NCBI RefSeq assembly: GCF_004768465.1
Contig: NZ_SRMF01000002.1
Span: 520,401 to 552,400 of the forward strand
Direction: 5' to 3'
DNA length: 32,000 nt
Source: Natronospirillum operosum
GTDB lineage: Bacteria > Pseudomonadota > Gammaproteobacteria > Pseudomonadales > Natronospirillaceae
The translations under genes were made by a program, and so were the position numbers. Numbering within the stretch: position 1 is the first letter of the stretch; each line of letters starts with the position of its first letter. The notes beneath the pieces were generated by a model. It was not told where the DNA came from, did not search any database, and saw nothing but the letters and a program-made list of their open reading frames with translations. Below are positions 4,206 through 20,421 of this stretch, piece after piece.

Positions 4206-4210
4206 TTCAT

Positions 4211-5073: not shown

Positions 5074-5595
5074 CTAGTTGCGCTTGATCTTCGACAGCGG
5101 ATGATCATCCGGATAGGTCGGAATCTGCGGTTTGGGTGTGCCCAGCATGACGCACATCAGACTCTCTTCCTCGGTACCGTTGAACAGCCCGCGATAGATA
5201 CCAGGCGGAATGGAGATCACATCACGCTCCTGCAGCACGGTTTCCATGTAGTGGTCGCCATCCTGCAGAAACAGCGTGATTTCACCCTTGAGCACAAAGA
5301 ACACCTCTTCCACATCGTCATGCACGTGCAGGGGGCCTTCACACTTGGCCGGCAGCACCATGGTGGAGAAGGTGAAATGTTCTGCCGGAATGGTGTTGGC
5401 ATCGTCCTTCACGCCGGTGGCGCCGGTGCCGATGTAGCGCATCTGGGCGCGCCGGTACTTGGGGTCGTAATCAGCCTGGAACTTGAGGGCATCCCAGTCG
5501 TACTTGCGGCCCTTGAAGCGGGCAATGCGGGATTCCATCCAGTCCTCGAAGCTCTTCTCTGCAGGTTTCTTCCAGGTGTCCAGTTGTGCGGTCAT
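5074..5595 (-). CDS. Cupin-domain protein
   Basis: 173 aa. Cupin motif 1 is GPLHVHDDVEEVFFVLKG. Motif 2 is PPGIYRGLFN, with Arg where the third His is usually found. An SD GAGAGGTGA lies upstream. Confidence 0.8.
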   Translation of the reverse strand: MTAQLDTWKKPAEKSFEDWMESRIARFKGRKYDWDALKFQADYDPKYRRAQMRYIGTGATGVKDDANTIPAEHFTFSTMVLPAKCEGPLHVHDDVEEVFFVLKGEITLFLQDGDHYMETVLQERDVISIPPGIYRGLFNGTEEESLMCVMLGTPKPQIPTYPDDHPLSKIKRN

Positions 5596-5657
5596 GATCG
5601 TTCACCTCTCTTTGGTGTGCAGTGATTCAATGGAGTCCGGTCGGGACTGTCTTGTGC

Positions 5658-6581: not shown

Positions 6582-6625
6582 TTCACTGCTCTCCCGAACC
6601 TGCAATACGGTTGCACGTTCTGTTG

Positions 6626-7580: not shown

Positions 7581-8897
7581 TCAGCGGAACATCATTTCGA
7601 CCGGCCAGGTCACGATCTGCGGGAACGTGAAGACCAGAATCAACGCCATGAAGTCACAGATCAGGAAGGGTATGGCGGCTCTGTAGATGTCCATCATGGT
7701 GGTGCCCTTGGGCGCCACACCCTTCATCACGAACAATGCAGCCCCTACTGGTGGTGAGGTGGCACCGGTCTCGATCGCAATCAGGAACAGCACTGCAAAC
7801 CAGATGGGATCAAAGCCAAGCTGGGTGACCACTGGTATATAGATGGGCAGTGTAATCAGCATGATTGGCAGCGGCCCCATGAACATGCCCAGCAGCACCA
7901 CAGACAGGATCATCATAAGGACGATCATCCGCGGGCTGATGTCCAGACTCATCACCGCATTCATCAGACCGAAGGTCACGCCGGTAAAGGCCAGCAACTG
8001 GCTGAAACCGATGGCGGTGCCTACTATCAGCAGAATCATTACCGAGAGATTGGAGCTCTCGAACATGGAGGCACCGAACTTGCGGACAGTCAGCCGCCGC
8101 TTGAACAGCGCCAGCAGTACCGTGGCCACGGCCCCGGAGGCCGCTGCCTCGGTCGGCGTGGCCCAGCCCAGAAAGATCACCCCGACCACGGAGAAGACGA
8201 CAACCCCGATGGGCACTATGTTGGCCGCACCGGACTTCAGCTTCTCGGGCCAGGGGGTGTAGGGTATGTCGAAAGTCGGCGCCACCGAAGGCTGCACCGT
8301 ACAGCGAATCCATATATAGGCCGCATAGAGCACCGCCATGATCAGGCCGGGCAGAATGATGGCAATCAGGATGCGACTGATGGACAGTTCACCCACGACC
8401 CCCAGCAGCACGGCCAGGGCACTGGGCGGTATCATGATGGCCAGCCCGGAGGAGCCGATAATGGGCCCCAGTGACATGGGCTTCTTGTAGCCTCTTTTTT
8501 CCATCTCCGGGGTCAGACTTGAACCCAGCAGGGCAATCGAACCCATGCTGTTGCCGGTCAGGGTGGAAAACAGCACCCCGCCGCCCACAGCCATGAAGGC
8601 CAGTCGACCCCGCAGCTTGCCGAACCATTTGTCCAGCGTATCCATCAGGTCATTGGCAATGCCCGATCGGAACATGACCTCGCCCATGATCATGAACATG
8701 GCTATGGGTACCAGCGTGAAACTGGTCAGGGCTCCGGTGGAGTTGACTACCAGCTGGCGCACCCCGGGAATACCACCCATGAATATGTAGGCCCCGACCA
8801 CATTGACGGCCAGAAAACTGAAGGCCACCGGCACACCGATGATCATCAGGAACATCAGGGCGCCCAGGATCAGCGACAGCGTCATCCACCATTCCAT
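7581..8897 (-). CDS. dctM: TRAP transporter large permease subunit
   Basis: Polytopic membrane protein. The ORF-track start at 8939 is a GTG. The ATG at 8897 (MEWWMTLSLILG) has GGAGG 9 nt upstream and gives the usual DctM N-terminus. Confidence 0.9.
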   Translation of the reverse strand: MEWWMTLSLILGALMFLMIIGVPVAFSFLAVNVVGAYIFMGGIPGVRQLVVNSTGALTSFTLVPIAMFMIMGEVMFRSGIANDLMDTLDKWFGKLRGRLAFMAVGGGVLFSTLTGNSMGSIALLGSSLTPEMEKRGYKKPMSLGPIIGSSGLAIMIPPSALAVLLGVVGELSISRILIAIILPGLIMAVLYAAYIWIRCTVQPSVAPTFDIPYTPWPEKLKSGAANIVPIGVVVFSVVGVIFLGWATPTEAAASGAVATVLLALFKRRLTVRKFGASMFESSNLSVMILLIVGTAIGFSQLLAFTGVTFGLMNAVMSLDISPRMIVLMMILSVVLLGMFMGPLPIMLITLPIYIPVVTQLGFDPIWFAVLFLIAIETGATSPPVGAALFVMKGVAPKGTTMMDIYRAAIPFLICDFMALILVFTFPQIVTWPVEMMFR

Positions 8898-8935
8898 ATC
8901 AGCGTACCTCCGGGGCAGGACAGTTGACCTTGCGT

Positions 8936-9466
8936 TCACTCGGCATCGGAGGTCCCCCTCAGGCTGTGCACTGCATGCGCCACAAACTGGATCGTCAGCA
9001 ACAGCATGCTCAGCGGCACCACGGCGGTGAAGATATAGCGCTGCGGGCGCAGCACGGACGTCACCCGGATGCCATGCTGATACTGGTCGATAGTGACCTG
9101 CAATGCATACCAGGCGAAGTACAGGCAGATGACCGCACCAAACAGATTGGTCAGTGCGGTCAGTATCTTCTGTGGTGTGGCGGGCAAGGCACCGGCCAGC
9201 AGATCAATGGCCACATGCCGGTTCTTTTCCAGCAGGAAGGGCGCCCCCAGGAAGGTCATGTACAGCAGTGAGTACCCGCTGACCTCCACCGTCCACATCA
9301 GTGATCGGTTGAACAGCAGGCGGGAGATGATCTCGGAAAAGACCATCAGGGTGGCGGCAACCAGTATGGCTGCAGCCAGGGCGGCCAGGGCCAGATTCAC
9401 CGCACTGACCCCCCGCATGATGGCAGCCATCCAGTCGTTCAACCGCGACATCTTTATCGAGGACAT
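8936..9466 (-). CDS. dctQ: TRAP transporter small permease subunit
   Basis: 176 aa with four hydrophobic segments, placed between the DctP-like and DctM-like genes. Confidence 0.85.
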   Translation of the reverse strand: MSSIKMSRLNDWMAAIMRGVSAVNLALAALAAAILVAATLMVFSEIISRLLFNRSLMWTVEVSGYSLLYMTFLGAPFLLEKNRHVAIDLLAGALPATPQKILTALTNLFGAVICLYFAWYALQVTIDQYQHGIRVTSVLRPQRYIFTAVVPLSMLLLTIQFVAHAVHSLRGTSDAE

Positions 9467-9495
9467 AATGCTCTACTCCCGCCTGACAGGCTGGT

Positions 9496-10473
9496 TCAAT
9501 CCACCAGCATGTCCATCAGTTCGTTGGCCAGATCCTCGCCCAGATCCTCACGCATCAGATCCCAGGCGGTTTCCAGCGACTGGTTGAGATAGTCTTCCGC
9601 GTCATCGCCTTCCAGGCGCAACTCGACATAGCCGGCCTCTTCGATCTCCTGCTCACCCAGCGCCAGGTACTGATCCCAGCTCTCGGCTTCCAGTTGATAG
9701 GCCAGATCGTCGCGCAGATAGGTTTGGAGCCGCTCGCGCAGATCTTCCGACATCCGGTTCCAGGCATCCTGATTGACCAGCACATTGAAGCCGGCACGGT
9801 AGAACTGAGGCGATACATAATGGGACACGACGTCGCCATACTGCGGCGCCCAGCCCTGATTGCCCTGCACAAAGCCGTCGATCACACCACGCTCCATGGC
9901 GGTGAAAATTTCTCCGATCGGCATGATGGTGGTATTGGCACCCATGGCCTCCAGGAACGGCTGCGCAGTCGGGAAGACCCGAATCCGCTTGCCGCGGATG
10001 TCGTCCAGAGAAGTGATTTCGTCACCCAGCCAGATATTGAAGCCGATTTCCGAGGCCGGAATTTCACCCCAGAACTTCAGCCCGCGGTCAGCATGCAACT
10101 CGTCCAGCCGCTCGTAATACCCGGTGCCGCGAATCTCCTCATAGGTCTTCATGGACAGGTTGTTGGTGGTGGAAGCCGGCACAGTACCCGAATAGTAGCT
10201 CGGGCTGATCAGCGCCACATCGATGGCGCCATTGCGCACGGCGTCAGCGAGATCGAATGGATTGATCACTTCCGGGCCACCGATCCAGTTCAACTGCACC
10301 TCGCCCGCAAACTCGTCATTGATGCCGTCAATAAAGGCCTGAAAGCCGGTCGCCAGCGGAATGGCCTGCGGGATGAAAGACACCACACGCAGCTGTTGTT
10401 GGGCCTGGGCCGAAACGGCCAGGGTCGCAGTGGCCAGACCTGCGGCAAGAGCAGTCAGTATCCTGTTTTTCAT
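9496..10473 (-). CDS. dctP: TRAP transporter substrate-binding protein (DctP family)
   Basis: 325 aa with signal peptide MKNRILTALAAGLATATLAVSAQA. DctP-like length and position. An SD AGAGGTG lies upstream. Confidence 0.9.
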   Translation of the reverse strand: MKNRILTALAAGLATATLAVSAQAQQQLRVVSFIPQAIPLATGFQAFIDGINDEFAGEVQLNWIGGPEVINPFDLADAVRNGAIDVALISPSYYSGTVPASTTNNLSMKTYEEIRGTGYYERLDELHADRGLKFWGEIPASEIGFNIWLGDEITSLDDIRGKRIRVFPTAQPFLEAMGANTTIMPIGEIFTAMERGVIDGFVQGNQGWAPQYGDVVSHYVSPQFYRAGFNVLVNQDAWNRMSEDLRERLQTYLRDDLAYQLEAESWDQYLALGEQEIEEAGYVELRLEGDDAEDYLNQSLETAWDLMREDLGEDLANELMDMLVD

Positions 10474-10510: not shown

Positions 10511-11641
10511 TCAGTCCAGCGCGACATTCCAGGCATCATAGCCATACACCCAGTCCGCATTGCCAGCCTGTTTGAGCCAGTCATTGGCTCGGGAACCGCG
10601 TTGTACATTGGCGGTACGTTCCAGCCGTGCGCGCTCGAAACGCTGCAGTGCCGGTGCCAGATCCGTTGTCGAAACACTCTCCAGGCAGCGCGCCAGCACC
10701 ACGGCATCCTCAATGGCCATACAAGCCCCCTGCGCCATGAAGGGCACCATGGGGTGCGCCGCATCACCCAGCACCACGGCCGCGCCACGGTGCCACGCGG
10801 ACATGGGCTCACGAACATAGAGCGCCGATTTGGTCACCGACTCGACTGCGCCCAGCAGCGCCTGCACTTCAGGATGAAAGTCCTGGTAAACCGCACGCAA
10901 CTCTTCCACATCACCCGGCATGGTCCAGGACTCCTCGGTCCAGCCCTGTTGTGGTGTGGTGGCAAAGATGAACACCTCTTCACCGCGAGTCAGCGGAAAG
11001 ACCACGACCTGAATGTCCGGTGAGGGCCCCCACCACTTGGTGAAGGCATCGAGATTGGGTACATCAATGGCGCTGCGGGGCACCACGGCCCGGTAGGACA
11101 CCAGACCGGTAAATTCGGGCTGATCGGCGCCAAACAGGCTGCGGCGAACGGCGGAATGGATGCCGTCACCACCGACCAGCAGGTCTGCCGTGGTGGTACG
11201 GTCACGTTCGAAACGGATCAGCGGTGGTGTGGACTGGCTGTCTACCGACTCCACACCGTGATCCAGATGGATAACATCAGAAGGCAGCTGCTGTTCCAGC
11301 GCCTGCAGCAGGTCGCCACGGTGGATGGTAAGCTGCGGTGCACCATAACGCTCTTCAGCGTCATTGCCCATGGCCAGCTTGGAAGTGACTTCGCCGGTAT
11401 CCCAGGTGCGACTGAGGCGATGCGTCGGCCGAGCGGCCGTCTCGCGAATGATGCCACCGACACCCAACCCGTCCAGGCACTTCACCGCATTGGGCGTAAG
11501 ATTGACATCCGCGCCGATGCGACGGAATGCCTTTGCCTGCTCATAAACCCTGACCTGATGCCCGACCTGTCCGCAGGCAATGGCCGCACAAAGGCCGCCA
11601 ATGCCGCCGCCACAGATAGCCAGTTCCAACCCTGTCTTCAT
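10511..11641 (-). CDS. FAD-dependent aromatic-ring monooxygenase (salicylate / 3-hydroxybenzoate hydroxylase-like)
   Basis: GGGIGGLCAAIA dinucleotide fold, GGDGIHSAVR, and GDAAHPMVPFMAQGACMAIEDA. I moved the start to the ATG at 11641 (MKTGLELAI) behind GAGAGGG. The 30-codon upstream extension runs through the AT-rich promoter. Confidence 0.9.
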   Translation of the reverse strand: MKTGLELAICGGGIGGLCAAIACGQVGHQVRVYEQAKAFRRIGADVNLTPNAVKCLDGLGVGGIIRETAARPTHRLSRTWDTGEVTSKLAMGNDAEERYGAPQLTIHRGDLLQALEQQLPSDVIHLDHGVESVDSQSTPPLIRFERDRTTTADLLVGGDGIHSAVRRSLFGADQPEFTGLVSYRAVVPRSAIDVPNLDAFTKWWGPSPDIQVVVFPLTRGEEVFIFATTPQQGWTEESWTMPGDVEELRAVYQDFHPEVQALLGAVESVTKSALYVREPMSAWHRGAAVVLGDAAHPMVPFMAQGACMAIEDAVVLARCLESVSTTDLAPALQRFERARLERTANVQRGSRANDWLKQAGNADWVYGYDAWNVALD

Positions 11642-11730
11642 AAGGCCCTCTCGCCGTCGATCACCGATTTCAACCGGCTTGTTTCCTGCTCCATGTTTTA
11701 TTATATGAAACAAGTTTTTATATATGATCA

Positions 11731-11759
11731 ACGATAGAACAGGACCCGCCGGATGTCAA
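11731..11759 (-). promoter_or_regulatory. Sigma70-type promoter P2 for the monooxygenase-dctPQM operon
   Basis: On the minus strand: CCGGATTGACA (the same 11-mer as at P1), a 17-nt spacer, then TATCGT. An AT-rich block with TTGTTTCATATAAT follows. Confidence 0.6.
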
Positions 11760-11890
11760 TCCGGCCCGAACCAGGGCAGAACTGCAGCCAGATGGCGAGA
11801 AAGGCAAGACAATCAATGAGTTATGAACAGAACCGGGAAATGCGCTCTGTTTCAGAGTGTCAGAAAGTGTAAATGCATGTACTGGTTACC

Positions 11891-11915
11891 CTGCCGGCAC
11901 TCGGAGTGCCGGCAG
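11891..11915 (-). terminator. Strong GC hairpin 13 nt downstream of the tauD-like stop
   Basis: CTGCCGGCAC-TCGGA-GTGCCGGCAG, a perfect 10-bp stem with a 5-nt loop. No U-tract follows on either strand, so intrinsic termination is uncertain. Confidence 0.45.
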
Positions 11916-11927
11916 AGATTGCAGGCA

Positions 11928-12746
11928 TCAGGCAGCCGCCGCCAGGGGCCGAGTCGTACCCTCTATCTGCACCCGGTAACCAGACCGCACGTGCGGCCAG
12001 TAGTCCCATACCGCCTTGTGGTGGGTACAGCGGTTGTCCCACAGGGCCACCGAATGCGGCGTCCAGTTGAAGCGGCAGCTCCACTCCGGCTTGGCGCAGT
12101 GTTCATAGAGAAACTCCAGAACACGCCTGGACTCATGCCGGGGCACTTCATTGATGTGCGACGTGAAGTCCGTATTGACGAACAGCAGCTTGCGCCCGGT
12201 TTCGGGGTGCTTGACGACTACCGGGTGCGCGGACACCGGTGTGCCCTGCCCGAATACACGCGTGCCGTCATGGGTCGCAGTCAGTCCGTCCAGATACTGT
12301 TTCATGGGCTCCGACAGCGCTTCATAGGCGGCGTACATGCTCGCAAACATCGTGCTGCCGCCGTTGTGCGGCGGTACCGTGTGGTTGTACAGCATGCTGC
12401 CCAGAGGCGGCACTTCGGCACAGGATTGGTCACTGTGAAAGTTCTCACCGGAGATCATGGTGCTGGTTTCGTCGTAGTGAAACTTGCGTACCAGCGGGTT
12501 GTCCGTGGTCTTGCTGATGGTCTTGGCCCCCACATGCTTGCCCAGCGGACCAAACTGACGCGCAAAGCGGATCTGATCGTCGAAACTGATCTGCTGGTCG
12601 CGGAAAAAGATGACACCACAGTCCAGAAATGCTTTCCTGATTTCCGCAAACACCTCGTCACTGATTTCAGAGGTGAGGTCCACGCCCTCGATCTCCGCGC
12701 CCACATGCGGGCTCAGACGAGTTACTTTTATATGTTGGTACGGCAT
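11928..12746 (-). CDS. TauD/TfdA-family Fe(II)/2-oxoglutarate-dependent dioxygenase
   Basis: 272 aa. HSD iron-binding motif (FHSDQS), GGSTMFASM, and WDNRCTHHKAV. An SD GAGGA lies upstream. Confidence 0.9.
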   Translation of the reverse strand: MPYQHIKVTRLSPHVGAEIEGVDLTSEISDEVFAEIRKAFLDCGVIFFRDQQISFDDQIRFARQFGPLGKHVGAKTISKTTDNPLVRKFHYDETSTMISGENFHSDQSCAEVPPLGSMLYNHTVPPHNGGSTMFASMYAAYEALSEPMKQYLDGLTATHDGTRVFGQGTPVSAHPVVVKHPETGRKLLFVNTDFTSHINEVPRHESRRVLEFLYEHCAKPEWSCRFNWTPHSVALWDNRCTHHKAVWDYWPHVRSGYRVQIEGTTRPLAAAA

Positions 12747-12845
12747 GCTGAATCCTCATTGCAACTAATACAGTATCAACTATACAGAGCCGGAAAAGCG
12801 CTGGTAAAATACGAAATATATATCTGCTGATACCGATTCGATAAC

Positions 12846-13772
12846 ATGGACATAAGACACCTGCGCCATTTCGTGGCGGTCGCGGAAGAGCTCCATTTCG
12901 GACGTGCAGCGCGCCGCCTGAACATGGAGCAGGCGCCGCTGAGCCAGTCCATCAAGCGTTTCGAAGAATATCTCGGAGGCGCACTTTTCGACCGTGCCGC
13001 ACGCAGTGGCACCCAACTGACCCCACTGGGGCAGCAACTGCTGCCGGATGCCCGACGGCTGGTCAGCGAGTTCGAGCTGACCATGCAGAATGCCCAGCTT
13101 GCAGCCACCGGAGAGCAGCGGCCGGTGAAGGTCGGGTTTGTCACTGCCGGCATTTTGCAACTGGTGCCTCAGGCCATTCGGCGCCTGCATCAGGTTGCAC
13201 CGGACATTCAGGTCAAACTGCGTGAAGCAGGCACTGCGGACCTGCTGGACATGCTGCGGGACGACGAACTGGATGTCTGCATCACCTTGCCCAGCGAGCA
13301 CTGCCCGCCCGGCATACAGATGATGGAAATCAGAAGAGACAGGACAATGCTGGCGATATGCAGACATCATGCACTCGCCGAACAGAAAATAATAACTGTC
13401 GATGATATTCGAAAAGAGCCACTTATATTTTTCCCGCGCGCAGTAAATCCCTATTTATATAAGCGCTTGCATGATTATTTTAATGCCCATGATTATACCC
13501 CGAGTATCGAACAGGAAGCGAAACTGACGCCAACCATGCTGGCCCTGGTCTCCGCCGGGCTGGGGGTCTGCTTCGTGCAGCAGAGCGCCGCCCTGTTGCC
13601 GTTCCCGGATGTGACGCTGCGCGAGATCGACGATCTCAGCGACGCGGTGCCCTGGAGCCTGATGCTGGCCTGGAAGCCCAGGCTCGCCAATGACGGGGTC
13701 ATGCGCTTTATCGACTGCCTGAAAGCTGCGGCACAGGACGCAGATAACGCAACGCCAGCAGCAGCACCATGA
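12846..13772 (+). CDS. LysR-family transcriptional regulator
   Basis: 308 aa. N-terminal MDIRHLRHFVAVAEELHFGRAARRLNMEQAPLSQSIKRFEEYLG is the canonical LysR HTH. It is divergent from the TauD-like gene. Confidence 0.9.
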   Translation: MDIRHLRHFVAVAEELHFGRAARRLNMEQAPLSQSIKRFEEYLGGALFDRAARSGTQLTPLGQQLLPDARRLVSEFELTMQNAQLAATGEQRPVKVGFVTAGILQLVPQAIRRLHQVAPDIQVKLREAGTADLLDMLRDDELDVCITLPSEHCPPGIQMMEIRRDRTMLAICRHHALAEQKIITVDDIRKEPLIFFPRAVNPYLYKRLHDYFNAHDYTPSIEQEAKLTPTMLALVSAGLGVCFVQQSAALLPFPDVTLREIDDLSDAVPWSLMLAWKPRLANDGVMRFIDCLKAAAQDADNATPAAAP

Positions 13773-15645
13773 TGGTCAGCAACAGCCACTGGTACACACC
13801 CGCTCCGACGCCGGTGAACCCCATCAGCACGATCGCCGCGCCCAGCAGACACAGCACCAGCCGATACAGCGGCGGCAACATGCCACGCCAGTAGCCGATG
13901 CTGCCGGCGGCGATACCCGCAAAGCTTACCACCACCAGCACAAACATCAGCAACCCTTCACCCCAGCCTCTGGTCAGCAACAGAGCCGGGTTCACGATCA
14001 TCATGAAAGGCAGTACAAACAGGGGCCACCCGAGAGCGACACATTCCACCGCCGTGCGCATGGGCCGGGCGTCGCCGATGCTGGCAGCAGAGAAGGCGGC
14101 GATGGCCACCGGCGGGGTAATCATCGACAGCACGCCAAAGTAGAAGATGAAGAAGTGGGCCGCCAGCGGCTCGATGCCGACCTGCACCAGCGCCGGCGCC
14201 ATCAGCACTGCCAGCAGCACATAGACACCGGTAGTGGGCATGCCCATGCCCAGTATGATGGAGGCCACAGCCGTGTAGACCACCAGCAGGGTCACCATGT
14301 CGAAGGACAGATACAGCAGGAACCGGGACAGGGACTGAGTCAGCCCGGAATAGTTCAGCACCCCGATGATCACGCCGGCCGCAGCCGATATGATGATAAC
14401 GTCGGTGGCGATCACACCGGTGGAACGAAAGTTGTCCAGCACCTCGCGCAGCCGCACCTTGTGGCCCATGTAGCCCAGGGTCAGGCCGCAGACGGCATAG
14501 AAGGCAGCAGCACTGAAGGCGGCCATTTCCGGACTCCAGCGAAACCCGATCAGCAGCACGAACAACAGTATCAGCCCGAAGAAGGTGTACCAGCCACTGC
14601 GAAAGTACTCCCAGGCGGTGCGGTCCAGCGGCTCAATGGCGCCGGTACCATCCCGGCAGGCCAGCAGGTGGATATTCAGAAACAGAATGACGAAGAACAG
14701 CGTGGCCGGGATCAGCGCTGCCATGACCACGGTAGCGAACGGAATCTGCAGAAACTCTGCCATCAGGAACGCTGCGGCGCCCATCACCGGCGGTATCAAC
14801 TGGCCGCCCGTCGAAGCCACCGCCTCGGTGGCTGCGGCGCGTTCCGGTTTCACACCGGCCCGCTTCATCATCGGAATGGTGATCACACCACTGGTGGCCA
14901 CATTGGCCACCGCACTGCCGGACACCGAGCCCAGCAGCGCCGATGACACCACCGACACCTTGGCCGGCCCACCGGGCGAACGCCGGAAAACGGCCAGGCA
15001 GATGTCGGTAAAGAACTGTCCGCCGCCCGAACGACTCAGCAGCCCGCCCATGAACAGGAAGGGCAGCACCACCACAACGGCCACAGCCACCGGCATACCC
15101 AGCAGGGCCGACGGGTCGGTGGTGATATAGGTCACCAGGTAATCCCAGTTCACGGAGGGCGCCGCAAACCGGGACGGCAGATGACTGCCCCAGAGCCCAT
15201 AAGCCACTATGGTGACAATGATGACCAGCAGCGGCAGACCGGCAATACGACGCACTGCCTCCAGCATGGCCAGCAGCAACAGGGAGCCGCCGATAACGAC
15301 CTCCGGCGGCCGAAAGGCGATGGCCATGGAGTATTGCTCGAAATTCCAGGCGAAATAACCCGCTACCAGCAGGCACCCCCATGCGGCCACAAGGTCCAGT
15401 ACGCGGCGCAACCAGAACTGCCAGGGCGCCAACTGCGCCGATACCGGCCATTTGTGGTAGGCCACAAACAGCGCACAGCCCACAGCCAGCGCGAAGAACT
15501 GCTCTTCGTAATAGCTGATGCCAAAATAGGAACCCAGATTGAAAGCCAGAAAACAGGTGATCAGAGTCAGGGCAGCAGCACAGGCCACAAAAACCCATTG
15601 ATTGATCAACACCAGGCCACGTACAACCATCGACATCAGGATCAC
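13708..15645 (-). CDS. TRAP transporter fused permease (TAXI-type, small and large domains fused)
   Basis: 645 aa and highly hydrophobic throughout. It lies directly downstream of a TAXI-family binding-protein gene. Confidence 0.9.
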   Translation of the reverse strand: MILMSMVVRGLVLINQWVFVACAAALTLITCFLAFNLGSYFGISYYEEQFFALAVGCALFVAYHKWPVSAQLAPWQFWLRRVLDLVAAWGCLLVAGYFAWNFEQYSMAIAFRPPEVVIGGSLLLLAMLEAVRRIAGLPLLVIIVTIVAYGLWGSHLPSRFAAPSVNWDYLVTYITTDPSALLGMPVAVAVVVVLPFLFMGGLLSRSGGGQFFTDICLAVFRRSPGGPAKVSVVSSALLGSVSGSAVANVATSGVITIPMMKRAGVKPERAAATEAVASTGGQLIPPVMGAAAFLMAEFLQIPFATVVMAALIPATLFFVILFLNIHLLACRDGTGAIEPLDRTAWEYFRSGWYTFFGLILLFVLLIGFRWSPEMAAFSAAAFYAVCGLTLGYMGHKVRLREVLDNFRSTGVIATDVIIISAAAGVIIGVLNYSGLTQSLSRFLLYLSFDMVTLLVVYTAVASIILGMGMPTTGVYVLLAVLMAPALVQVGIEPLAAHFFIFYFGVLSMITPPVAIAAFSAASIGDARPMRTAVECVALGWPLFVLPFMMIVNPALLLTRGWGEGLLMFVLVVVSFAGIAAGSIGYWRGMLPPLYRLVLCLLGAAIVLMGFTGVGAGVYQWLLLTIMVLLLALRYLRPVPQLSGSR

Positions 15646-15679
15646 TCTCCCATCGGCTTTCTGTTCTGCGGAATAAAGG

Positions 15680-15710
15680 GCCCGGGGGCATTTGCCCTGC
15701 GGGCCCGGGC
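15680..15710 (-). other. Intercistronic GC stem-loop between the TAXI binding-protein and permease genes
   Basis: GCCCGGG (15680-15686) pairs with CCCGGGC (15704-15710). GGGCCCGGG occurs twice (15678-15686 and 15701-15709). Confidence 0.4.
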
Positions 15711-15713
15711 AGG

Positions 15714-16658
15714 TCAGTCGAAGTAGTTCAGAGCTGCATCATGGTAGGGAATGTTGGGTACGCCACGCATGCGTTCACGGTCAATGCCGCGGAAGTTGGC
15801 GACCGCATTGCCCAGTTCCTCACTGCCTTCTTCCATGGCCTGCAGGACCGACTCGATCGCTGCGGGATCGAAATCGCGGTGCGCGACCAGAACCACAGCA
15901 TAGGTCAGCAAATTGGTATCTGCAGCAATACCGGCCGGCAGGCTCTCTCTGTCCATCGGCGCCGGATAACCCTGCGGCATGATTTGCTGCGTGGCTTCAA
16001 CGGCAGCGTCATCGTCATACAGCGACAGGAAACGAACGCCGCCCATGGAGGCTTCCAGCTCTTCCACACTGCCGGAGCCTGCAGACAGGAAGGCCACATC
16101 CACCCGGCCGGAAGACAGCAGTTCGCCGCCGCGCGGTGTATTCGGCACCGATACAGTGGTTATGTCCGAGTCGGACAGCCCCGCATTGGCGACTATGGCC
16201 TGACGCATCAGTTCGATAATCGGCGCTGAAGAGTAGCCTGCGGCCACTCGCTTGCCGGCGATATCAGACAATTCCTGAATGTCCGAATCATCATCCACCA
16301 GAAAGCCGACCTGGCTTTCAAACAGCCCCGCGACCACGCGCAGGTTCGGGTGCTCCGAGTTGAACGGCACCTCGCCGTCCAGTGCGCGCGATACCTCGAA
16401 CACATTGACCACGGCAAAGTCGAGTTCGCCCTGATTGACCAGAGCCATCAGCGGCCCCGAGCCGGCATAAGGCTGCACCCGGGCATTGATGCCCTGATTT
16501 TCGAGTGTTTCGGACAAGCCGACACCGGTGGAGTAGAACAGCGTACCCGGCTGGTTGGTTCCGATTGTGACTGTCTGGCTGGCAGCCGGGGCAGACGCGA
16601 GCAGCCCGGTTATCAGCAGGGACAGCGGGAGTAGCAGTCTCGATTTGATCGTCAGCAT
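15714..16658 (-). CDS. TAXI-family TRAP transporter solute-binding protein
   Basis: Signal peptide MLTIKSRLLLPLSLLITGLLASAPAASQ, then TIGTNQPGTLFYSTGVGLSE...GELDFAVVN. I chose the ATG at 16658 behind AGGTGA. The ORF-track start at 16667 is a GTG. Confidence 0.9.
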   Translation of the reverse strand: MLTIKSRLLLPLSLLITGLLASAPAASQTVTIGTNQPGTLFYSTGVGLSETLENQGINARVQPYAGSGPLMALVNQGELDFAVVNVFEVSRALDGEVPFNSEHPNLRVVAGLFESQVGFLVDDDSDIQELSDIAGKRVAAGYSSAPIIELMRQAIVANAGLSDSDITTVSVPNTPRGGELLSSGRVDVAFLSAGSGSVEELEASMGGVRFLSLYDDDAAVEATQQIMPQGYPAPMDRESLPAGIAADTNLLTYAVVLVAHRDFDPAAIESVLQAMEEGSEELGNAVANFRGIDRERMRGVPNIPYHDAALNYFD

Positions 16659-16690
16659 AAACATCACCTGTTATGTGTTTCAGTTCCGTT

Positions 16691-16753
16691 TCAGGCCAGG
16701 CAGGCCATCGCGCTGCGGGGGCTTCTGTCTTCGCCTGTCCCCTCGGCACTCAT
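16691..16753 (-). CDS. Candidate 20-codon leader ORF (MSAEGTGEDRSPRSAMACLA) in the long 5' leader of the TAXI operon
   Basis: The ATG at 16753 is preceded by AGAGGAGGGAGG with a 5-nt spacer, the strongest SD-like sequence I saw in the window. The ORF stops 33 nt before the binding-protein start. There is no other support. Confidence 0.3.
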   Translation of the reverse strand: MSAEGTGEDRSPRSAMACLA

Positions 16754-16846
16754 TGTAACCTCCCTCCTCTTGGGCGGTCGCACGGGTCCGGGCAGGGCTC
16801 CATTATTTTTAGGACGGGTCGGCGTCTATGGTGATCCTTTACACTG

Positions 16847-16865
16847 CAGAATAGAGTCTATTCTG
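16847..16865. promoter_or_regulatory. Perfect 19-bp palindrome CAGAATAGA-G-TCTATTCTG (candidate operator)
   Basis: Nine-bp arms around a single central base. It lies about 45-65 nt downstream of the predicted P3 -10. Confidence 0.5.
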
Positions 16866-16914
16866 GCTGCAACCCATTTTATATATGAAACATCATTTTT
16901 TATCTGATAATATG

Positions 16915-16943
16915 ACGTTAGCGCGGGGGTTGATCGATGTCAA
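16915..16943 (-). promoter_or_regulatory. Sigma70-type promoter P3 for the TAXI-TRAP operon
   Basis: On the minus strand: TTGACA (16943-16938), a 17-nt spacer, then TAACGT. An AT-rich block with TGATGTTTCATATATA follows. It implies a leader of about 245 nt. Confidence 0.55.
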
Positions 16944-16994
16944 ACTCTTTTCAGTGTCCTGATACGCCCGGAAGCCCCCGAAGCGCACCCACAC

Positions 16995-17756
16995 TCAGTT
17001 GAAGACAAAGCCGCCGTTGACCGGGATGACCTGACCGCTGACAAAGTCGGACCAGCCTGACAACAGGTAGAGCACAGTGCCGTCGACATCATCAGCCTGC
17101 TGCTCGCCGGCCAGCGAGCGGCCGGCGGCATAGTAGTCCCAGCGTTCCTGCGGCACGTATTCGGTGGCCTCGACCCGGGTCAGCCCAGGCGCCACCACAT
17201 TGACACAGATATTGTCGCTACCCAGCTCGCGCGCCATGGCGCGGCTCATGGAGATCACTGCCCCCTTGCTGGCCACATAGGCCATCAGGCGCGGCGCGCC
17301 CCAGAGGGCCGTGTCCGAGGCCATGTTCACCACCTTGCCGCGTCTGTCACCGCCTTTCAGCAGCGGCACTGCGGCTCGTGTCATCAGCCAGACACCGCGC
17401 ACATTGACCTGCATGACCCGGTCCCACAGGTCCTGGTCGTATTCATGCATCGTCTTGCCGCCGACATTGGTGGCCAGGGCAGCATTGTTGACCAGACCAT
17501 CCAGTGGGCCGTCGGCAGCGACCCGGGCCATGCCTTGCTCGATGCTGTCCGGGTCGGCCTGATCAATGTACAGATCTTCCACCGCATGACCCTCGCCGCG
17601 CAAGGCTGCGGCGGTGGTTGCCAGTTCGTCCTGCAGAATGTCGCTCAGCACCAGTTGCGCCCCGGCGGCGGCGGCGGCAGAGGCGATCTGGCGCCCCAGA
17701 CCGCGCGCGGCGCCGGTGATCATGATGCGGCGACCGGCAAGCATACCGTCACTCAT
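16995..17756 (-). CDS. Classical short-chain dehydrogenase/reductase
   Basis: 253 aa with TGAARGLG, NNAA, MAS...YVASK (a canonical Ser/YxxxK). Its start overlaps the upstream stop as ATGA at 17753-17756. Confidence 0.9.
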   Translation of the reverse strand: MSDGMLAGRRIMITGAARGLGRQIASAAAAAGAQLVLSDILQDELATTAAALRGEGHAVEDLYIDQADPDSIEQGMARVAADGPLDGLVNNAALATNVGGKTMHEYDQDLWDRVMQVNVRGVWLMTRAAVPLLKGGDRRGKVVNMASDTALWGAPRLMAYVASKGAVISMSRAMARELGSDNICVNVVAPGLTRVEATEYVPQERWDYYAAGRSLAGEQQADDVDGTVLYLLSGWSDFVSGQVIPVNGGFVFN

Positions 17757-18787
17757 GACGCCGCCTCGGTATGCCGCTTCAACTGCTGTTTGGCTTCCTT
17801 CTGCAGTACCCGGCGCAGGCGCGACAGACCGACATCATGCTGATACAGGTTTTCATGCATGCGGGCCTCGGGAGCCAGGCTTTCGAGAATGACTCGGTCC
17901 TGTTCCAGCACATCCCAGTGCAGGCCTTCCAGCTTGGTGCGATAGAAGAACTTCCACACATCGCGCTGCCAGCCGCTGACCTTGCGTACGCGCCAGAAGA
18001 AGACGCGGCAGTTGTCCGCATCTTCCGGTACTACCATGCCGACAATCCAGAACGGACCACCGGGGCCGAACTCCTTCTTGTAGGGGATCGACAGGCGCAG
18101 CCAGAGGGCGCCGGTGTTGCCGTACTCCACCCAGTCGAAATTGACGCCGAGCTGGCCGGTTTTCTTGAAGATGAAGCCGGCGTCCGTGGGCACCAGTTCC
18201 ATTTCGGCCTTGCGGTCACCTTCGGCCATGGAATGCGAGTCCGCATGGAGGTAGGTGCCGTGCATGGGGTCCATGACGTTGTCGATGGCATACTGATAGT
18301 TGCACTTCCAGGTGGCCGTGCACAACATGTGGCCGTAGGTTTCGGTGTCGTCCAGTTGCTCCGGCAGGGCCAGTTCGGTCGGCTCTTCATTCGGCGTGGT
18401 GCCGAACCAGACAAAGACCGCGCCGTGCGCCTCCTGCACGTGGTAGCGGCGCACACAGTTCTGCCCCACCAGCGGGCTGTTGCTGATGGCCGGCACATCA
18501 CAGATGGTGCCTTCGCCATTCACCTCCACCCCGTGATACCAGCAGGCCAGCCGGTCACCCAGATTCCAGCCTCGTGACAGGCGGGCACCCCGGTGCGGAC
18601 AGCGGTCCTCGATGGCATTGATGTTGCCGTCGAAATCACGCCACAGCACGATATTCTCGCCCAGGCGGGTAATGCCGAGCGGGTTGCTGCCCACTTCCCA
18701 ACTGGCCACAACCGGATACCAGAGTGACCGCAGGCCCTGATCCAGGTACTGCTGTACAGCGTCGTTCTGTTCTGTTGTCTTGCTCAT
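17753..18787 (-). CDS. Rieske [2Fe-2S] non-haem-iron oxygenase, alpha-type catalytic subunit (no beta subunit present)
   Basis: 344 aa. Rieske motif CPHRGARL...CWYHG, mononuclear iron motif NVMDPMHGTYLH. An SD GGGAGG lies upstream. Confidence 0.9.
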   Translation of the reverse strand: MSKTTEQNDAVQQYLDQGLRSLWYPVVASWEVGSNPLGITRLGENIVLWRDFDGNINAIEDRCPHRGARLSRGWNLGDRLACWYHGVEVNGEGTICDVPAISNSPLVGQNCVRRYHVQEAHGAVFVWFGTTPNEEPTELALPEQLDDTETYGHMLCTATWKCNYQYAIDNVMDPMHGTYLHADSHSMAEGDRKAEMELVPTDAGFIFKKTGQLGVNFDWVEYGNTGALWLRLSIPYKKEFGPGGPFWIVGMVVPEDADNCRVFFWRVRKVSGWQRDVWKFFYRTKLEGLHWDVLEQDRVILESLAPEARMHENLYQHDVGLSRLRRVLQKEAKQQLKRHTEAAS

Positions 18788-18813
18788 GTCTGCCTCCCGC
18801 TGTACCGGTGCGC

Positions 18814-19119
18814 TCAGCGCCCCAGCACCGCCATTTCACGCTGAAAACTGTCTTCGGTCCACTGGGCCCCGGTACGATCAAGGCAGCCTGCCTTGTTGAG
18901 ACCCTGCACCACTTCGGGCAATTCGGTAGCGCCGGCAGCGAACACCTCTTCCAGGGCGGCCTGCAGGTCCAGCTCGAACTGCGCCGGTGCATGCTTGCGT
19001 GTCTGCCAGACCGGGTTGGCAAAGCCACCCGGCTGCTCGATATGACCCTGCCCTGGCTGGGAGGCCGGTATGACTTTCTGCCAGTCGCGCAGTTGGGCGT
19101 TGTATGCCGATTCGTTCAT
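18814..19119 (-). CDS. Small conserved-looking protein of unknown function (101 aa); the C-terminus resembles a recombinase-type helix-turn-helix
   Basis: The ATG at 19119 overlaps the Rieske ferredoxin stop (ATGA at 19116-19119) and is preceded by GAGGTGA at 8 nt. Third-position GC bias matches the neighbouring genes. The C-terminal LPEVVQGLNKAGCLDRTGAQWTEDSFQREMAVLG follows the LN..G....G..W pattern. The 46-codon upstream extension in the ORF track overlaps the ferredoxin gene and is rejected. Confidence 0.6.
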   Translation of the reverse strand: MNESAYNAQLRDWQKVIPASQPGQGHIEQPGGFANPVWQTRKHAPAQFELDLQAALEEVFAAGATELPEVVQGLNKAGCLDRTGAQWTEDSFQREMAVLGR

Positions 19120-19439
19120 GATGCGGTCACCTCGGCTGAGTCCAGTTGAATTTCTTCGTCCACGATGCGCAGCGGATACACCTTGATGTCCCGCTCCGCC
19201 GGGCCGCCCAGACACTTGCCGGTGCGGATATCGAAAGTGGCTTCGTGCAGCGGACACTCAATCTCGCCGTCTTCCACAAACCCCTGCGACAGCAGGGCAT
19301 AGGCGTGAGGACAGACATCTTCCAGTGCATAGTAGTCATCGTCGAGCAGGTAGATGCCGACTTCCTTGCCGTCTATCTTGGCCGAGAAGGGAAAGTCTTC
19401 CTGTACCTGATCCTTGCGACAGACTGTGGTCCAACTCAT
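19116..19439 (-). CDS. Rieske-type [2Fe-2S] ferredoxin (oxygenase electron-transfer component, NirD/CarAc-like size)
   Basis: 107 aa from the ATG at 19439 (MSWTTVC) behind AGGGGG. Contains CPHAYALL...CPLHEATF. Confidence 0.85.
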   Translation of the reverse strand: MSWTTVCRKDQVQEDFPFSAKIDGKEVGIYLLDDDYYALEDVCPHAYALLSQGFVEDGEIECPLHEATFDIRTGKCLGGPAERDIKVYPLRIVDEEIQLDSAEVTAS

Positions 19440-19500
19440 GGTGATTACCCCCTGAGATCGAAAATTATCATATATCAACTTTTGTTTTTTATATGGTACG

Positions 19501-19528
19501 AGTATAGGCAGTCGCCCACTCCTGTCAA
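19501..19528 (-). promoter_or_regulatory. Sigma70-type promoter P4 for the Rieske operon
   Basis: On the minus strand: TTGACA (19528-19523), a 16-nt spacer, then TATACT (19506-19501). The AT-rich block CATATAAAAAACAAAAGTTGATATATGATAATTTT follows. Confidence 0.6.
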
Positions 19529-19576
19529 TTACTATATAGTATTAGGGCATGCCTTTTGTGTTACAGCTTGTTATGG

Positions 19577-20365
19577 TCAGGCTTCATCCGGCCGGGTCCG
19601 GGTCACCACCTGATAGTCATGCGGCGGCATGACCATGGTCATCCAGGCGAAGGGGCGATCCGGGGCGATACTGCGCAGACTGTAGCGGATATCCAGGCGC
19701 AATCCGGTATCACCCGCTGCTGCCCCGACATGAGGACCGATGGATTGGGGAATTCGATAACGGCTCAGGCGGTTCTCGGCCTGCAGTTCCGCCAGCGGGA
19801 TGCGATCCTGCAACAATGGCAGTACACTTTCGTGCTCGAGCGCTTCCGCCGGCAGCGTCATCAGGGGCGCGGCGATGTCGCCGCGCAGAATGATGTTGGA
19901 GTAGGCATCAAAGGCACCGTCGATGCGGTCCTGCCGCACGATCTGCACATAGCCGTCGTCACAGGGCCCGAGCACACCGGTCCAGGCGCCACGCCCGGTC
20001 AGGCGACGCCGCTTGAGCAGGCGAATGAACACCATGCGGACACGGTCACCGTCCGGACGCAGAAAACTGAAGGCCGGGGTGCTGATCTCGTGTCGATGGT
20101 CCCCCGCCGCGACAAAGGTACCACGGCGGCGGTGCCGGACCAGTTCACCGCTCTGTACCAGTTCGCGCAGAGCCTTCTGTATGGTGCCGAGACTGAGCGG
20201 CAGCGCCTCGGCCATGGCCTGTTCCGTGGGCAGGCGGGTACCCTCGGCCAGCGCCCCGTCGACAATCAGTTCGATCAGGGCATCACGCAGCAGCCGGTAC
20301 TTGGGCGTTCTCGGATTCTGCGCCTGCAGGGCCTGCAGACGGCGTTCGAGGCGTTGCATCAACAT
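19577..20365 (-). CDS. GntR-family transcriptional regulator (probable UTRA effector domain)
   Basis: The winged HTH reads PKYRLLRDALIELIVDGALAEGTRLPTEQAMAEALPLSLGTIQKALRELVQSGELVRHRRRGTFV. The start is uncertain (ATG at 20365, 20359 or 20434). The 20434 start would overlap the divergent MFS gene. Confidence 0.8.
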   Translation of the reverse strand: MLMQRLERRLQALQAQNPRTPKYRLLRDALIELIVDGALAEGTRLPTEQAMAEALPLSLGTIQKALRELVQSGELVRHRRRGTFVAAGDHRHEISTPAFSFLRPDGDRVRMVFIRLLKRRRLTGRGAWTGVLGPCDDGYVQIVRQDRIDGAFDAYSNIILRGDIAAPLMTLPAEALEHESVLPLLQDRIPLAELQAENRLSRYRIPQSIGPHVGAAAGDTGLRLDIRYSLRSIAPDRPFAWMTMVMPPHDYQVVTRTRPDEA

Positions 20366-20421
20366 GATCAATGGCAGGCTCAGGGAATACAGGACATCTC
20401 TTATGGCATATTGGAACCCGC

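Follow-up and report, generated by a model that had tools for sequence, protein, structure and literature searches.

A small HTH_62 protein as companion of an alpha-only Rieske oxygenase in a widely conserved, apparently uncharacterised gene cluster of Natronospirillum operosum and its relatives

Rieske oxygenases, which are among the best-studied enzymes in bacteria, are built from an accepted set of components, namely an alpha subunit with or without a beta subunit, a ferredoxin and a reductase. In carbazole 1,9a-dioxygenase (CarAa/CarAc/CarAd, class III), an alpha-only oxygenase without a beta subunit works with a separate Rieske-type ferredoxin and a separate reductase on an N-heterocyclic substrate; the class IA two-component oxygenases (phthalate dioxygenase, VanAB and isophthalate dioxygenase) are also alpha-only, with a VanA_C-like catalytic domain, and the Hca/Mhp system of Escherichia coli (HcaEFCBD and MhpABC, for 3-phenylpropionate) joins an alpha/beta oxygenase to a pathway with extradiol cleavage. 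The stretch analyzed here (the window) comprises 32,000 nucleotides of Natronospirillum operosum (contig NZ_SRMF01000002.1, positions 520,401 to 552,400 of the forward strand), a source with which the oxygenase agrees, being 100% identical to a protein of this species, and carries on its minus strand four genes, for a Rieske ferredoxin, a 101-residue protein of the Pfam family HTH_62, a Rieske oxygenase and a short-chain dehydrogenase/reductase (SDR). These most likely constitute the ring-activating module of a widely conserved and apparently uncharacterised pathway of about 13 genes, which would degrade an anionic aromatic acid, probably an N-heteroaromatic one. What stands out in the system is an uncharacterised small and apparently obligate partner protein, electron-transfer chains that seem to be interchangeable, and a widespread catabolic pathway for which kynurenate is a testable candidate substrate. 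The four genes are the following.

19116..19439, minus strand: Rieske-type [2Fe-2S] ferredoxin, 107 residues from an ATG (Pfam Rieske, E 1e-21)
18814..19119, minus strand: HTH_62 protein, 101 residues (PF20552, E 2.6e-27)
17753..18787, minus strand: alpha-only Rieske/mononuclear-iron oxygenase, 344 residues (Pfam Rieske, E 8e-21, and VanA_C, E 1e-12)
16995..17756, minus strand: classical SDR, 253 residues (Pfam adh_short_C2, E 2.7e-52)

The four genes are tightly coupled into a single unit that has a promoter to itself. The ferredoxin and HTH_62 genes overlap in an ATGA, which was read in the sequence (gcatcATGAacg), the coordinates of the oxygenase and SDR genes give a 4-nt overlap, and the 26-nt gap between the HTH_62 and oxygenase genes has a GGGAGG ribosome-binding site inside it. 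The promoter (19528-19501) is a sigma-70-like TTGACA-16-TATACT with 11 of 12 positions matching and is situated between the gene of a GntR-family regulator and the ferredoxin gene. In these points the initial annotation of this DNA, which had described four packed minus-strand genes with the same coordinates and junctions and with a promoter of their own, was borne out by the open reading frames (ORFs) and by the sequence. It had also called the ferredoxin Rieske-type, in agreement with the Pfam match and with the relatives of the protein in the PDB, which are the ferredoxins of the naphthalene, biphenyl, toluene and carbazole dioxygenases (CarAc among them); its top NCBIfam matches, AndAb and HcaC, are both under their cut-offs. 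The separate Rieske-type ferredoxin that characterizes three-component systems is thus present as the 107-residue protein.

A genome scan recovered at least 80 orthologous loci, to which all counts out of 80 refer, from Klebsiella, Enterobacter, Raoultella, Serratia, Yersinia, Kluyvera, Providencia, Acinetobacter, Halomonas, Saccharospirillum, Aeromonas, Zobellella and a Neisseriaceae bacterium; in E. coli genomes homologous DNA was not found. Across the genera of these loci the oxygenases are 67-82% identical, and two additional relatives, a metagenome contig (L091) and a Natronospirillum metagenome-assembled genome (MAG; L092), have oxygenases 92% and 82% identical, respectively. Since the order ferredoxin, HTH_62, oxygenase recurs in 80/80 loci and is followed by the SDR in 78/80, the four-gene arrangement is far from a chance one. 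In Klebsiella pneumoniae and Acinetobacter baumannii the genes continue beyond ferredoxin, HTH_62, oxygenase and SDR with (IclR), a VOC-family protein, an FAD-dependent oxidoreductase, a major facilitator superfamily (MFS) transporter, a cupin, an alpha/beta hydrolase, a second SDR, aspartate dehydrogenase, aldehyde dehydrogenase and a thiamine pyrophosphate (TPP)-binding protein. This gene set recurs in Cupriavidus, Ralstonia, Caballeronia NK8, Novosphingobium, Paracoccus and Pseudosulfitobacter, and in part in Streptomyces chartreusis. Klebsiella pneumoniae, Enterobacter, Serratia, Yersinia, Acinetobacter baumannii and the Burkholderia cepacia complex have the pathway on the chromosome, and its genes carry generic names only. 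The initial annotation had made its interest in the locus depend on whether the order is conserved among orthologues and whether a characterised system shares it: the order proved to be conserved, no characterised system with this order was found, and neither a paper characterising the pathway in the literature nor a model for it in NCBIfam was found.

The HTH_62 protein sets the locus apart from the carbazole system, and we know of no HTH_62 partner in the class IA systems (phthalate dioxygenase, VanAB and isophthalate dioxygenase). It had initially been listed as an unknown protein, which has to be amended in part, as Pfam knows it by name (PF20552, 95.1 bits against a cut-off of 27), while no function was found for the family; its orthologues bear the PGAP name “recombinase-like helix-turn-helix domain-containing protein”. 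In 80/80 genome loci, as in betaproteobacteria, Novosphingobium and Streptomyces, the gene immediately precedes that of the oxygenase, and it belongs to the operon of the oxygenase in every other context examined (alpha-, beta- and gammaproteobacteria, Streptomyces). The linkage holds across different regulators (GntR, IclR, TetR), transporters (tripartite ATP-independent periplasmic (TRAP), MFS and ATP-binding cassette (ABC) types) and electron-transfer partners, and the protein appears from this pattern of co-occurrence to be an obligate companion of this oxygenase clade. Among 1.84 billion proteins the family is small: it counts 391 representatives (at 50% identity), and nearly all of these are single-domain proteins of 70-125 residues. 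In the AlphaFold2 model, residues 47-100 form a confident three-helix bundle, and the preceding approximately 45 residues have no predicted structure. This tail is highly conserved, with N7, L10, P18, G23, G25, I27, P30, G31, N35, W38, Q39 and R41 invariant; the model had no significant match among solved structures (best Foldseek E 2.7).

Two readings of the protein have to be weighed, namely an accessory of the oxygenase, be it a subunit, an assembly factor or a gate, and a transcription factor or co-regulator (e.g. an anti-repressor of GntR or IclR) that is no part of the enzyme. The latter draws on the Pfam helix-turn-helix class and on the helical part of the protein, which carries the LNxxG...G..WT motif from the recombinase domain of large serine recombinases and is homologous to their DNA-binding motif. 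Three long basic proteins of 458-525 residues (P0310, P0348, P0353), each with 4-6 tandem HTH_62 helical motifs, match both PF20552 and Recombinase PF07508, which explains the Pfam name and places the ancestry of the family in a DNA-binding recombinase domain. Also, in Paracoccus and Pseudosulfitobacter, i.e. in alphaproteobacteria, HTH_62 is the first gene of the operon and is set apart from the oxygenase by three ABC-transporter genes, and apparent HTH_62 fusions in the databases are frameshift artefacts. All these points weigh against an oxygenase accessory. The charge of the protein points the other way: all 63 sequences are acidic (median pI 4.66, range 4.2-5.6, net charge about -7), with a pI of 4.2 for the helical domain of the window protein, which is unusual for a DNA binder and, as far as charge goes, speaks against the basic DNA-contacting surface expected of a helix-turn-helix transcription factor. 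No cluster is without a GntR or IclR regulator of its own, and HTH_62 stays with the oxygenase whatever the regulator (GntR, IclR or TetR) or electron-transfer partner. Because of this acidity and independence of regulator type, the overlap of its gene with the ferredoxin gene, the spacing of 26 nt to the oxygenase gene and a conserved tail that is unstructured alone, we infer that HTH_62 serves the oxygenase as an accessory rather than binding DNA as a regulator, the regulatory role being unlikely. If it does act on the enzyme, a small protein passed on together with a single oxygenase clade in four bacterial classes, whatever the electron-transfer partners, would represent a new kind of Rieske oxygenase component.

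The fusions mentioned above were followed up individually and rejected. Those joining HTH_62 to the oxygenase or the ferredoxin to HTH_62 (P0028, 446 residues; P0328, 197 residues) have out-of-frame linkers or internal deletions, and the oxygenase-SDR fusions (P0027, P0057) show the same and are frameshift or assembly artefacts; together with P0004 and P0034, these records of fusion or internal duplication could lead analyses of domain architecture or of the Rosetta-stone kind astray. As a possible HTH_62 homologue, ORF7 of the carbazole (car) operon was considered and likewise dropped, since tblastn with the HTH_62 protein against all plasmids matched only records of the present oxygenase clade and no Pseudomonas plasmid. 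A separate observation concerns a plasmid of Caballeronia sp. M1242 (6645-9609 of locus L085), which carries a divergent sub-clade with an oxygenase 50% identical and a shortened HTH_62 of 72 residues without the conserved N-terminal tail. An unrelated hypothetical protein of 110 residues precedes HTH_62 there, RidA and a VanB-type reductase follow, and no SDR adjoins. This sub-clade may carry out a different reaction, on an amino-substituted substrate.

The oxygenase has the Rieske motif C63-P-H65 and C82-W-Y-H85, which is invariant in 57 sequences of 45-100% identity, as are H176, H181 and D297, presumed from their motif positions to be the iron ligands, and D173. Profile and structure searches give the Pfam domains Rieske and VanA_C and place carbazole dioxygenase CarAa nearest, both by sequence among solved structures (E 3e-23) and by fold (Foldseek E 1e-19, TM 0.65-0.72, 22-24% identity, from an AlphaFold2 model with a mean predicted local distance difference test (pLDDT) of 82.7). 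The next fold matches are phthalate dioxygenase, guaiacol O-demethylase, DdmC, 2-oxoquinoline 8-monooxygenase (OxoO) and SxtT/GxtA; the top ones, i.e. CarAa, phthalate dioxygenase, DdmC and OxoO, are all alpha-only enzymes. A gene for a beta (NTF2-like) subunit is missing both from the cluster of the window and from the orthologous clusters that have an annotation. The enzyme is thus of the alpha-only type, as the initial annotation had held, with a CarAa-like fold. It forms a distinct, unnamed clade of this family: no NCBIfam model came near its cut-off, and in the plasmid and replicon collection the clade is sharply bounded, with identities running from 72% down to 45% and the next matches at 29% or less. 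In a side observation, two highly conserved segments, 174-188 (which carries H176 and H181) and 308-316, have a pLDDT below 50 in the model; they may become ordered only with the metal, in the trimer or with a partner protein.

In comparison to the carbazole system, the present one is therefore alike in its alpha-only oxygenase, its separate ferredoxin and, in relatives of the window, its separate reductase, and an N-heterocycle is proposed as the substrate here as well. It differs from CarAa in the low identity given above, in the length of the oxygenase (344 against about 384 residues), in the apparently obligate HTH_62 partner, in the use of a VanB-type reductase by some orthologues, and in the SDR that follows the oxygenase, which implies lateral rather than angular dioxygenation. 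With the class IA enzymes it shares the alpha-only organization and the VanA_C-like catalytic domain, phthalate and isophthalate dioxygenases being fold neighbours at about 20% identity, and, in the manner of class IA, a phthalate dioxygenase reductase (PDR)/VanB-type reductase accompanies the orthologues of Cupriavidus, Ralstonia, Caballeronia M1242 and Streptomyces. Unlike class IA, the window and the other gammaproteobacteria have a Rieske ferredoxin partner.

The role of the SDR depends on its setting. The protein has the SDR fold and a YVASK motif with the catalytic Tyr-x3-Lys, and the families and structures closest to it are those of FabG, glucose 1-dehydrogenase and pyridoxal 4-dehydrogenase. 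Since its gene abuts or overlaps that of the oxygenase almost everywhere, and since a two-domain extradiol dioxygenase is always found in the cluster, gene context suggests that it serves as a cis-dihydrodiol dehydrogenase. It has to be noted that two points count against this assignment and against dioxygenation in general: no specific likeness of the SDR to cis-dihydrodiol dehydrogenases of the BphB/HcaB type was seen, none of these ranking near the top of its matches, and the VanA_C domain also occurs in monooxygenases and O-demethylases. An alternative model would accordingly have the oxygenase act as a monooxygenase or as an O- or N-demethylase of the VanA, DdmC or NdmA kind, with the SDR oxidizing an alcohol or some other intermediate. 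In keeping with it, DdmC, the guaiacol O-demethylase 7qwt, NdmA, KshA and SxtT are all among the fold and sequence neighbours of the VanA_C-containing oxygenase, the SDR resembles FabG and pyridoxal 4-dehydrogenase rather than BphB, and in Novosphingobium, Caballeronia M1242 and Streptomyces the SDR gene does not adjoin the oxygenase gene. It is nevertheless quite unlikely, as the two genes overlap or abut in 78/80 loci and are followed by the two-domain extradiol dioxygenase, which is the classical triad of dioxygenase, dehydrogenase and cleavage enzyme, and as CarAa, the best structural match, is itself a dioxygenase.

For every one of the lower genes, the window has a homologue on the strand of the four-gene unit. 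This unit is therefore not self-contained and appears as the upper part of a pathway with about 13 genes, which lies almost entirely within the window. The lower-pathway operon, assigned from Pfam and NCBIfam, occupies 1..7432 on the minus strand and comprises the following genes.

6626-7432, minus strand: IclR regulator
5658-6605, minus strand: two-domain VOC/extradiol dioxygenase (best NCBIfam match HpaD)
5074-5595, minus strand: cupin
4211-5047, minus strand: alpha/beta hydrolase
3408-4205, minus strand: second SDR
2575-3405, minus strand: aspartate dehydrogenase (NCBIfam, 391 bits against a cut-off of 177)
1078-2547, minus strand: aldehyde dehydrogenase
1-1047, minus strand: 5' part of the gene of a TPP-dependent enzyme, cut by the window edge and hence missing from the ORF list (from the translation of 1-1100)

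The proteins of this operon are 40-80% identical to the enteric ones. In most enteric and Acinetobacter loci, the block from IclR to aspartate dehydrogenase is contiguous with the oxygenase genes, and the aldehyde dehydrogenase and TPP-enzyme genes come next in the records of Klebsiella, Acinetobacter, Cupriavidus, Ralstonia, Novosphingobium, Paracoccus and Pseudosulfitobacter, the TPP-enzyme gene being the last conserved gene of the pathway. In the proposed sequence of reactions, the oxygenase would form a cis-dihydrodiol, which the SDR would re-aromatize to a catechol, and the VOC-family extradiol dioxygenase (5658-6605) would then open the ring. The second SDR, the TPP enzyme, the aldehyde dehydrogenase, the cupin and the hydrolase would degrade the product to aspartate or oxaloacetate and a C5 acid, with the aspartate dehydrogenase handling the nitrogen-bearing fragment. 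The TPP enzyme and the aldehyde dehydrogenase together amount to the oxidative decarboxylation of a 2-oxo acid.

Several clues bear on the substrate. The transporters of the clusters are organic-anion types, and the nearest characterised relatives of the oxygenase, CarAa and, among the matches, 2-oxoquinoline 8-monooxygenase, act on N-heterocycles. The closest relatives of the hydrolase are RutD and alpha-(N-acetylaminomethylene)succinate (AAMS) hydrolase, which act on nitrogen-containing ring-cleavage products, and the BphD-type hydrolases are more distant. One variant, that of Caballeronia M1242, includes the imine deaminase RidA, and every version of the cluster has a gene for aspartate dehydrogenase. 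For the K. pneumoniae aspartate dehydrogenase, activity with aspartate/oxaloacetate has been measured (PMC5554190).

A candidate that agrees with these clues is kynurenate, an anionic N-heteroaromatic acid of the type proposed here, which is a host, plant and insect metabolite of tryptophan with signalling roles. In KEGG map00380 and the work of the Hayaishi laboratory it is converted with NADH and O2 to 7,8-dihydro-7,8-dihydroxykynurenate (EC 1.14.99.2) and on, by an NAD-dependent dehydrogenation, to 7,8-dihydroxykynurenate (EC 1.3.1.18), which is cleaved to 5-(3-carboxy-3-oxopropenyl)-4,6-dihydroxypicolinate (EC 1.13.11.10); the side chain is reduced to the oxopropyl form, oxidative decarboxylation of the resulting 5-(3-carboxy-3-oxopropyl) compound yields 5-(2-carboxyethyl)-4,6-dihydroxypicolinate, and the picolinate ring is then opened. 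To our knowledge, genes or sequences have not been assigned to EC 1.14.99.2, 1.3.1.18 and 1.13.11.10. The breakdown of kynurenate through 7,8-dihydroxykynurenate in Pseudomonas goes back to Taniuchi and Hayaishi (1963), according to the passage of PMC5610271 that cites them. A full-text literature search found no paper that assigns genes to this 7,8-dihydroxy route.

When the gene content is set against these steps, compared by chemistry only, each step has a matching enzyme type in the cluster, and the sequence of reactions maps one-to-one. The oxygenase, the SDR and the extradiol dioxygenase would then be the 7,8-hydroxylase (EC 1.14.99.2), the dihydrodiol dehydrogenase (EC 1.3.1.18) and the 8,8a-dioxygenase (EC 1.13.11.10), respectively, and opening of the picolinate ring would leave the nitrogen on a C4 dicarboxylate, i.e. 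on aspartate or iminoaspartate. Where Halomonas-type clusters include the FAD monooxygenase, this enzyme could form the same catechol from xanthurenate (8-hydroxykynurenate). Set against this are the nature of the assignment itself, which was drawn from the gene content and the recorded chemistry of the pathway, and the roles given to the cupin, the hydrolase and the second SDR, which are guesswork. Kynurenate, with xanthurenate entering via the FAD monooxygenase, is put forward tentatively, as the leading candidate among possible substrates and at less than even odds. The more elaborate model, in which the cluster is the “quinoline” (kynurenate) branch of tryptophan catabolism and HTH_62 binds the oxygenase through its conserved N-terminal tail as a required fourth component, is rather doubtful. 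If the substrate is kynurenate, the cluster would provide sequences for enzymes for which we know of no assigned genes and would show how gut and wound pathogens remove this metabolite.

A different model of the pathway follows the logic of Hca/Mhp and takes an aryl-alanine (phenylalanine or m-tyrosine) as the substrate. Dioxygenation and dehydrogenation would lead to 2,3-dihydroxyphenylalanine, and extradiol cleavage and C-C hydrolysis would release L-aspartate, in the place of succinate, together with 2-hydroxypentadienoate; the FAD monooxygenase would be a second entry like MhpA. The parallels to hca/mhp include the HcaC-like ferredoxin, the SDR, the HcaD-like reductase of the glutathione-reductase type that is found in relatives, IclR, the MFS transporter, the FAD monooxygenase as second entry, extradiol cleavage and the alpha/beta hydrolase, and the aspartate dehydrogenase would consume the predicted aspartate. 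In addition, part of the A. baumannii cluster, A1S_0956-0958, is induced about 2-fold on mucin, an amino-acid source (PMC5757984); in strain ATCC 17978 these are the genes of aspartate dehydrogenase, aldehyde dehydrogenase and the TPP enzyme, and those of the oxygenase system are expected a short way upstream. The two systems also differ: the oxygenase is here of the alpha-only VanA_C/CarAa type and in Hca alpha/beta, the extradiol enzyme is VOC-type here and LigB-type in Mhp, and all NCBIfam scores are far under the equivalog cut-offs. Instead of the hydratase, aldolase and acetaldehyde dehydrogenase of Mhp, the cluster has aspartate dehydrogenase, the TPP enzyme, aldehyde dehydrogenase and the cupin. 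No hydratase/aldolase genes are present for 2-hydroxypentadienoate, and the TPP enzyme, the aldehyde dehydrogenase, the cupin and the second SDR are left without a clear role. The closeness of the hydrolase to RutD and AAMS hydrolase rather than to meta-cleavage-product hydrolases also counts against an aryl-alanine, as does the fact that phenylalanine is already degraded in these organisms by homogentisate or phenylacetate routes. This model, although the main alternative for the substrate, is accordingly considered very unlikely, and an anionic, probably N-heteroaromatic, acid is retained as the preferred type of substrate.

The initial annotation had regarded the lack of a ferredoxin reductase as a feature of the system. 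The absence from the 32-kb window was confirmed: tblastn with three glutathione-reductase-type queries from orthologous clusters gave a best E of 0.04, a fourth query of this type and three PDR/VanB-type queries had no match at E <= 1, and a Pfam scan of the large ORFs of the window found none with FNR or Pyr_redox architecture. As a property of the system, on the other hand, the absence did not hold, because a reductase of the glutathione-reductase type (HcaD/AndAa-like) is part of the cluster in 77/80 orthologous loci. The dedicated reductase of a three-component system is therefore missing in the window and present in these loci and in L092. In Klebsiella and A. baumannii it is the FAD-dependent oxidoreductase, HcaD/AndAa-like with Pyr_redox_2 and Reductase_C domains, for which the Klebsiella protein scores 317 bits to HcaD (NCBIfam). 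The reductase gene comes directly after the SDR gene in Halomonas, Saccharospirillum and the Natronospirillum MAG. Contig L091 is like the window in having none, and there 328 nt lie between the SDR gene and the genes that come next, those of the FAD monooxygenase and DctPQ.

Since the window and L091 both have no reductase gene, it was lost in their common ancestor, and the loss is confined to these two lineages. Between them, the ratio of nonsynonymous to synonymous substitution rates (dN/dS) is 0.077 for the ferredoxin, 0.075 for HTH_62, 0.036 for the oxygenase and 0.071 for the SDR, at a dS of about 1.2-1.5 for the four genes, which shows that purifying selection was kept on all four long after the reductase had gone. 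In the simplest reading, electrons would be supplied by a reductase encoded elsewhere in the N. operosum genome. That the operon is instead a decaying, non-functional remnant, as the absence of either reductase type from the 32 kb and an insertion at the position of the reductase might suggest, is highly improbable in view of the four intact ORFs, the low dN/dS, a strong promoter sharing a regulon motif with the lower pathway, and the fact that Rieske systems are often served by reductases encoded elsewhere.

The electron-transfer chain also varies in other lineages. In Cupriavidus, Ralstonia, Caballeronia M1242 and Streptomyces, the cluster has a fused reductase of the PDR/VanB type, and no Rieske ferredoxin is found beside the oxygenase, which is 50-64% identical to that of the window. 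As some orthologues thus have a PDR/VanB-type reductase and no ferredoxin, the ferredoxin is not intrinsic to this oxygenase clade. One clade employs two chains, a class-III-like one in gammaproteobacteria and one with a class-IA-like reductase in other lineages, so the distinction that the initial annotation had drawn between the usual and the exceptional electron partner of an alpha-only oxygenase applies only in part, as both occur within this one family. For the evolution of such systems, the case is one of a single oxygenase with either of two electron-transfer chains according to lineage, and here of an oxygenase that survives the loss of its own reductase.

The site at which relatives carry the reductase gene is occupied in the window by an insertion of 5.35 kb. 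By blastn, positions 1-4453 of L091 correspond to 21420-16994 of the window and 4782-7782 to 11641-8684; because the segment between has no L091 counterpart, the insertion is specific to the lineage of the window. The insertion and the genes after it are as follows.

11642..16993, both strands: lineage-specific 5.35-kb insertion (blastn against L091)
15714-16667, minus strand: TAXI binding protein, within the insertion
13708-15645, minus strand: fused TRAP permease, within the insertion
12846-13772, plus strand: divergent LysR regulator, within the insertion
11928-12746, minus strand: TauD-family dioxygenase, within the insertion
10511..11641, minus strand: FAD-dependent aromatic hydroxylase (the FAD monooxygenase), 376 residues from the ATG at 11641 (FAD_binding_3)
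7581..10473, minus strand: DctP-DctQ-DctM TRAP transporter (Pfam DctP, DctQ, DctM), with the DctP binding protein at 9496-10473

The adjoining TAXI-TRAP importer had initially been taken to point to an anionic substrate. The conclusion stands, and the adjacency from which it was drawn does not, since the TAXI-TRAP genes belong to the insertion; the importers that are conserved across the versions of the cluster are DctPQM, MFS or ABC systems, of which DctPQM is the one kept in the present group of genomes. Both the missing reductase and the TAXI importer are accidents of this lineage. The FAD monooxygenase is a constant neighbour of the DctPQM genes, which lie beside it in L001-L012 (Halomonas-type genomes), L091 and L092, and its homologues in L001-L012 are 67-73% identical and lie 2-4 kb downstream of the SDR. 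Its best NCBIfam match, 3-hydroxybenzoate 6-monooxygenase, is below the cut-off. The ORF of 10511-11731 begins at a TTG within its own promoter, and the comparison with L091 and the sequence, an ATG followed by MKTGLELAICGGG, put the real start at 11641. For DctP, the best solved relative is 4MNC/4MNI (E 1e-30), which we take to be a binder of aromatic 2-oxo acids; it is too distant and was not used. In the Natronospirillum MAG, a sulfatase gene (9399-10985) lies between the DctM and IclR-VOC genes, a hint that the substrate may also be used in the form of sulfated conjugates.

The regulator and the promoter region at the head of the four-gene unit are the following.

19577..20380, minus strand: GntR-family regulator, directly upstream of the ferredoxin operon (Pfam GntR, E 1.8e-13)
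19468..19541, minus strand: promoter region of the ferredoxin operon (promoter scan and sequence reading)

The length of 267 residues for the GntR regulator was adopted from its homologue in L091. Homologues in the same position are found in L001-L012 (47-59% identity), L091 and L092, the regulator being kept upstream of the operon in the Halomonas / Saccharospirillum / Natronospirillum version of the cluster. The promoter has its -35 box (TTGACA) at 19528-19523 and its -10 box (TATACT) at 19506-19501 and is the sole site of its kind that the scan found in 16500-20600. An A/T-rich CATATA...TATATG element follows the -10 box at 19496-19468, and a perfect 12-bp palindrome, TACTATATAGTA, at 19541-19530, stops 1 nt short of the -35 box on its upstream side and may be an operator to which the neighbouring GntR-family regulator binds. 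The same architecture, that is a TTGACA -35 box, a TAnnnT -10 box and, just downstream, a ATCATATA...TGTTTCATATA-like element, is found at four promoters of the window, with a -35/-10 spacing of 16-17 nt at the three where this was measured.

19528-19468, minus strand: ahead of the ferredoxin operon
16943-16882, minus strand: ahead of the TAXI-TRAP operon
11759-11702, minus strand: ahead of the FAD monooxygenase-DctPQM operon
about 7570-7511, minus strand: ahead of the IclR-VOC operon

When up to 2 mismatches are allowed, the 11-mer TGTTTCATATA occurs 7 times against 2.0 expected, a number that none of 100 shuffles reached, and the motif is present in contig L091 as well. This suggests one regulon that would extend over the ferredoxin, TAXI-TRAP, FAD monooxygenase-DctPQM and IclR-VOC operons. 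Judged by the motif at the TAXI operon, the inserted TAXI-TRAP genes appear to have been put under the control of the pathway, by which the functional link assumed in the initial annotation would be partly rescued for N. operosum. At 22120-27945 the window contains a separate cluster with a TctC/TctB/TctA tripartite tricarboxylate transporter, an amidase (25333-26784) and a GntR/UTRA regulator (27214-27945), which has no evident link to the oxygenase pathway.

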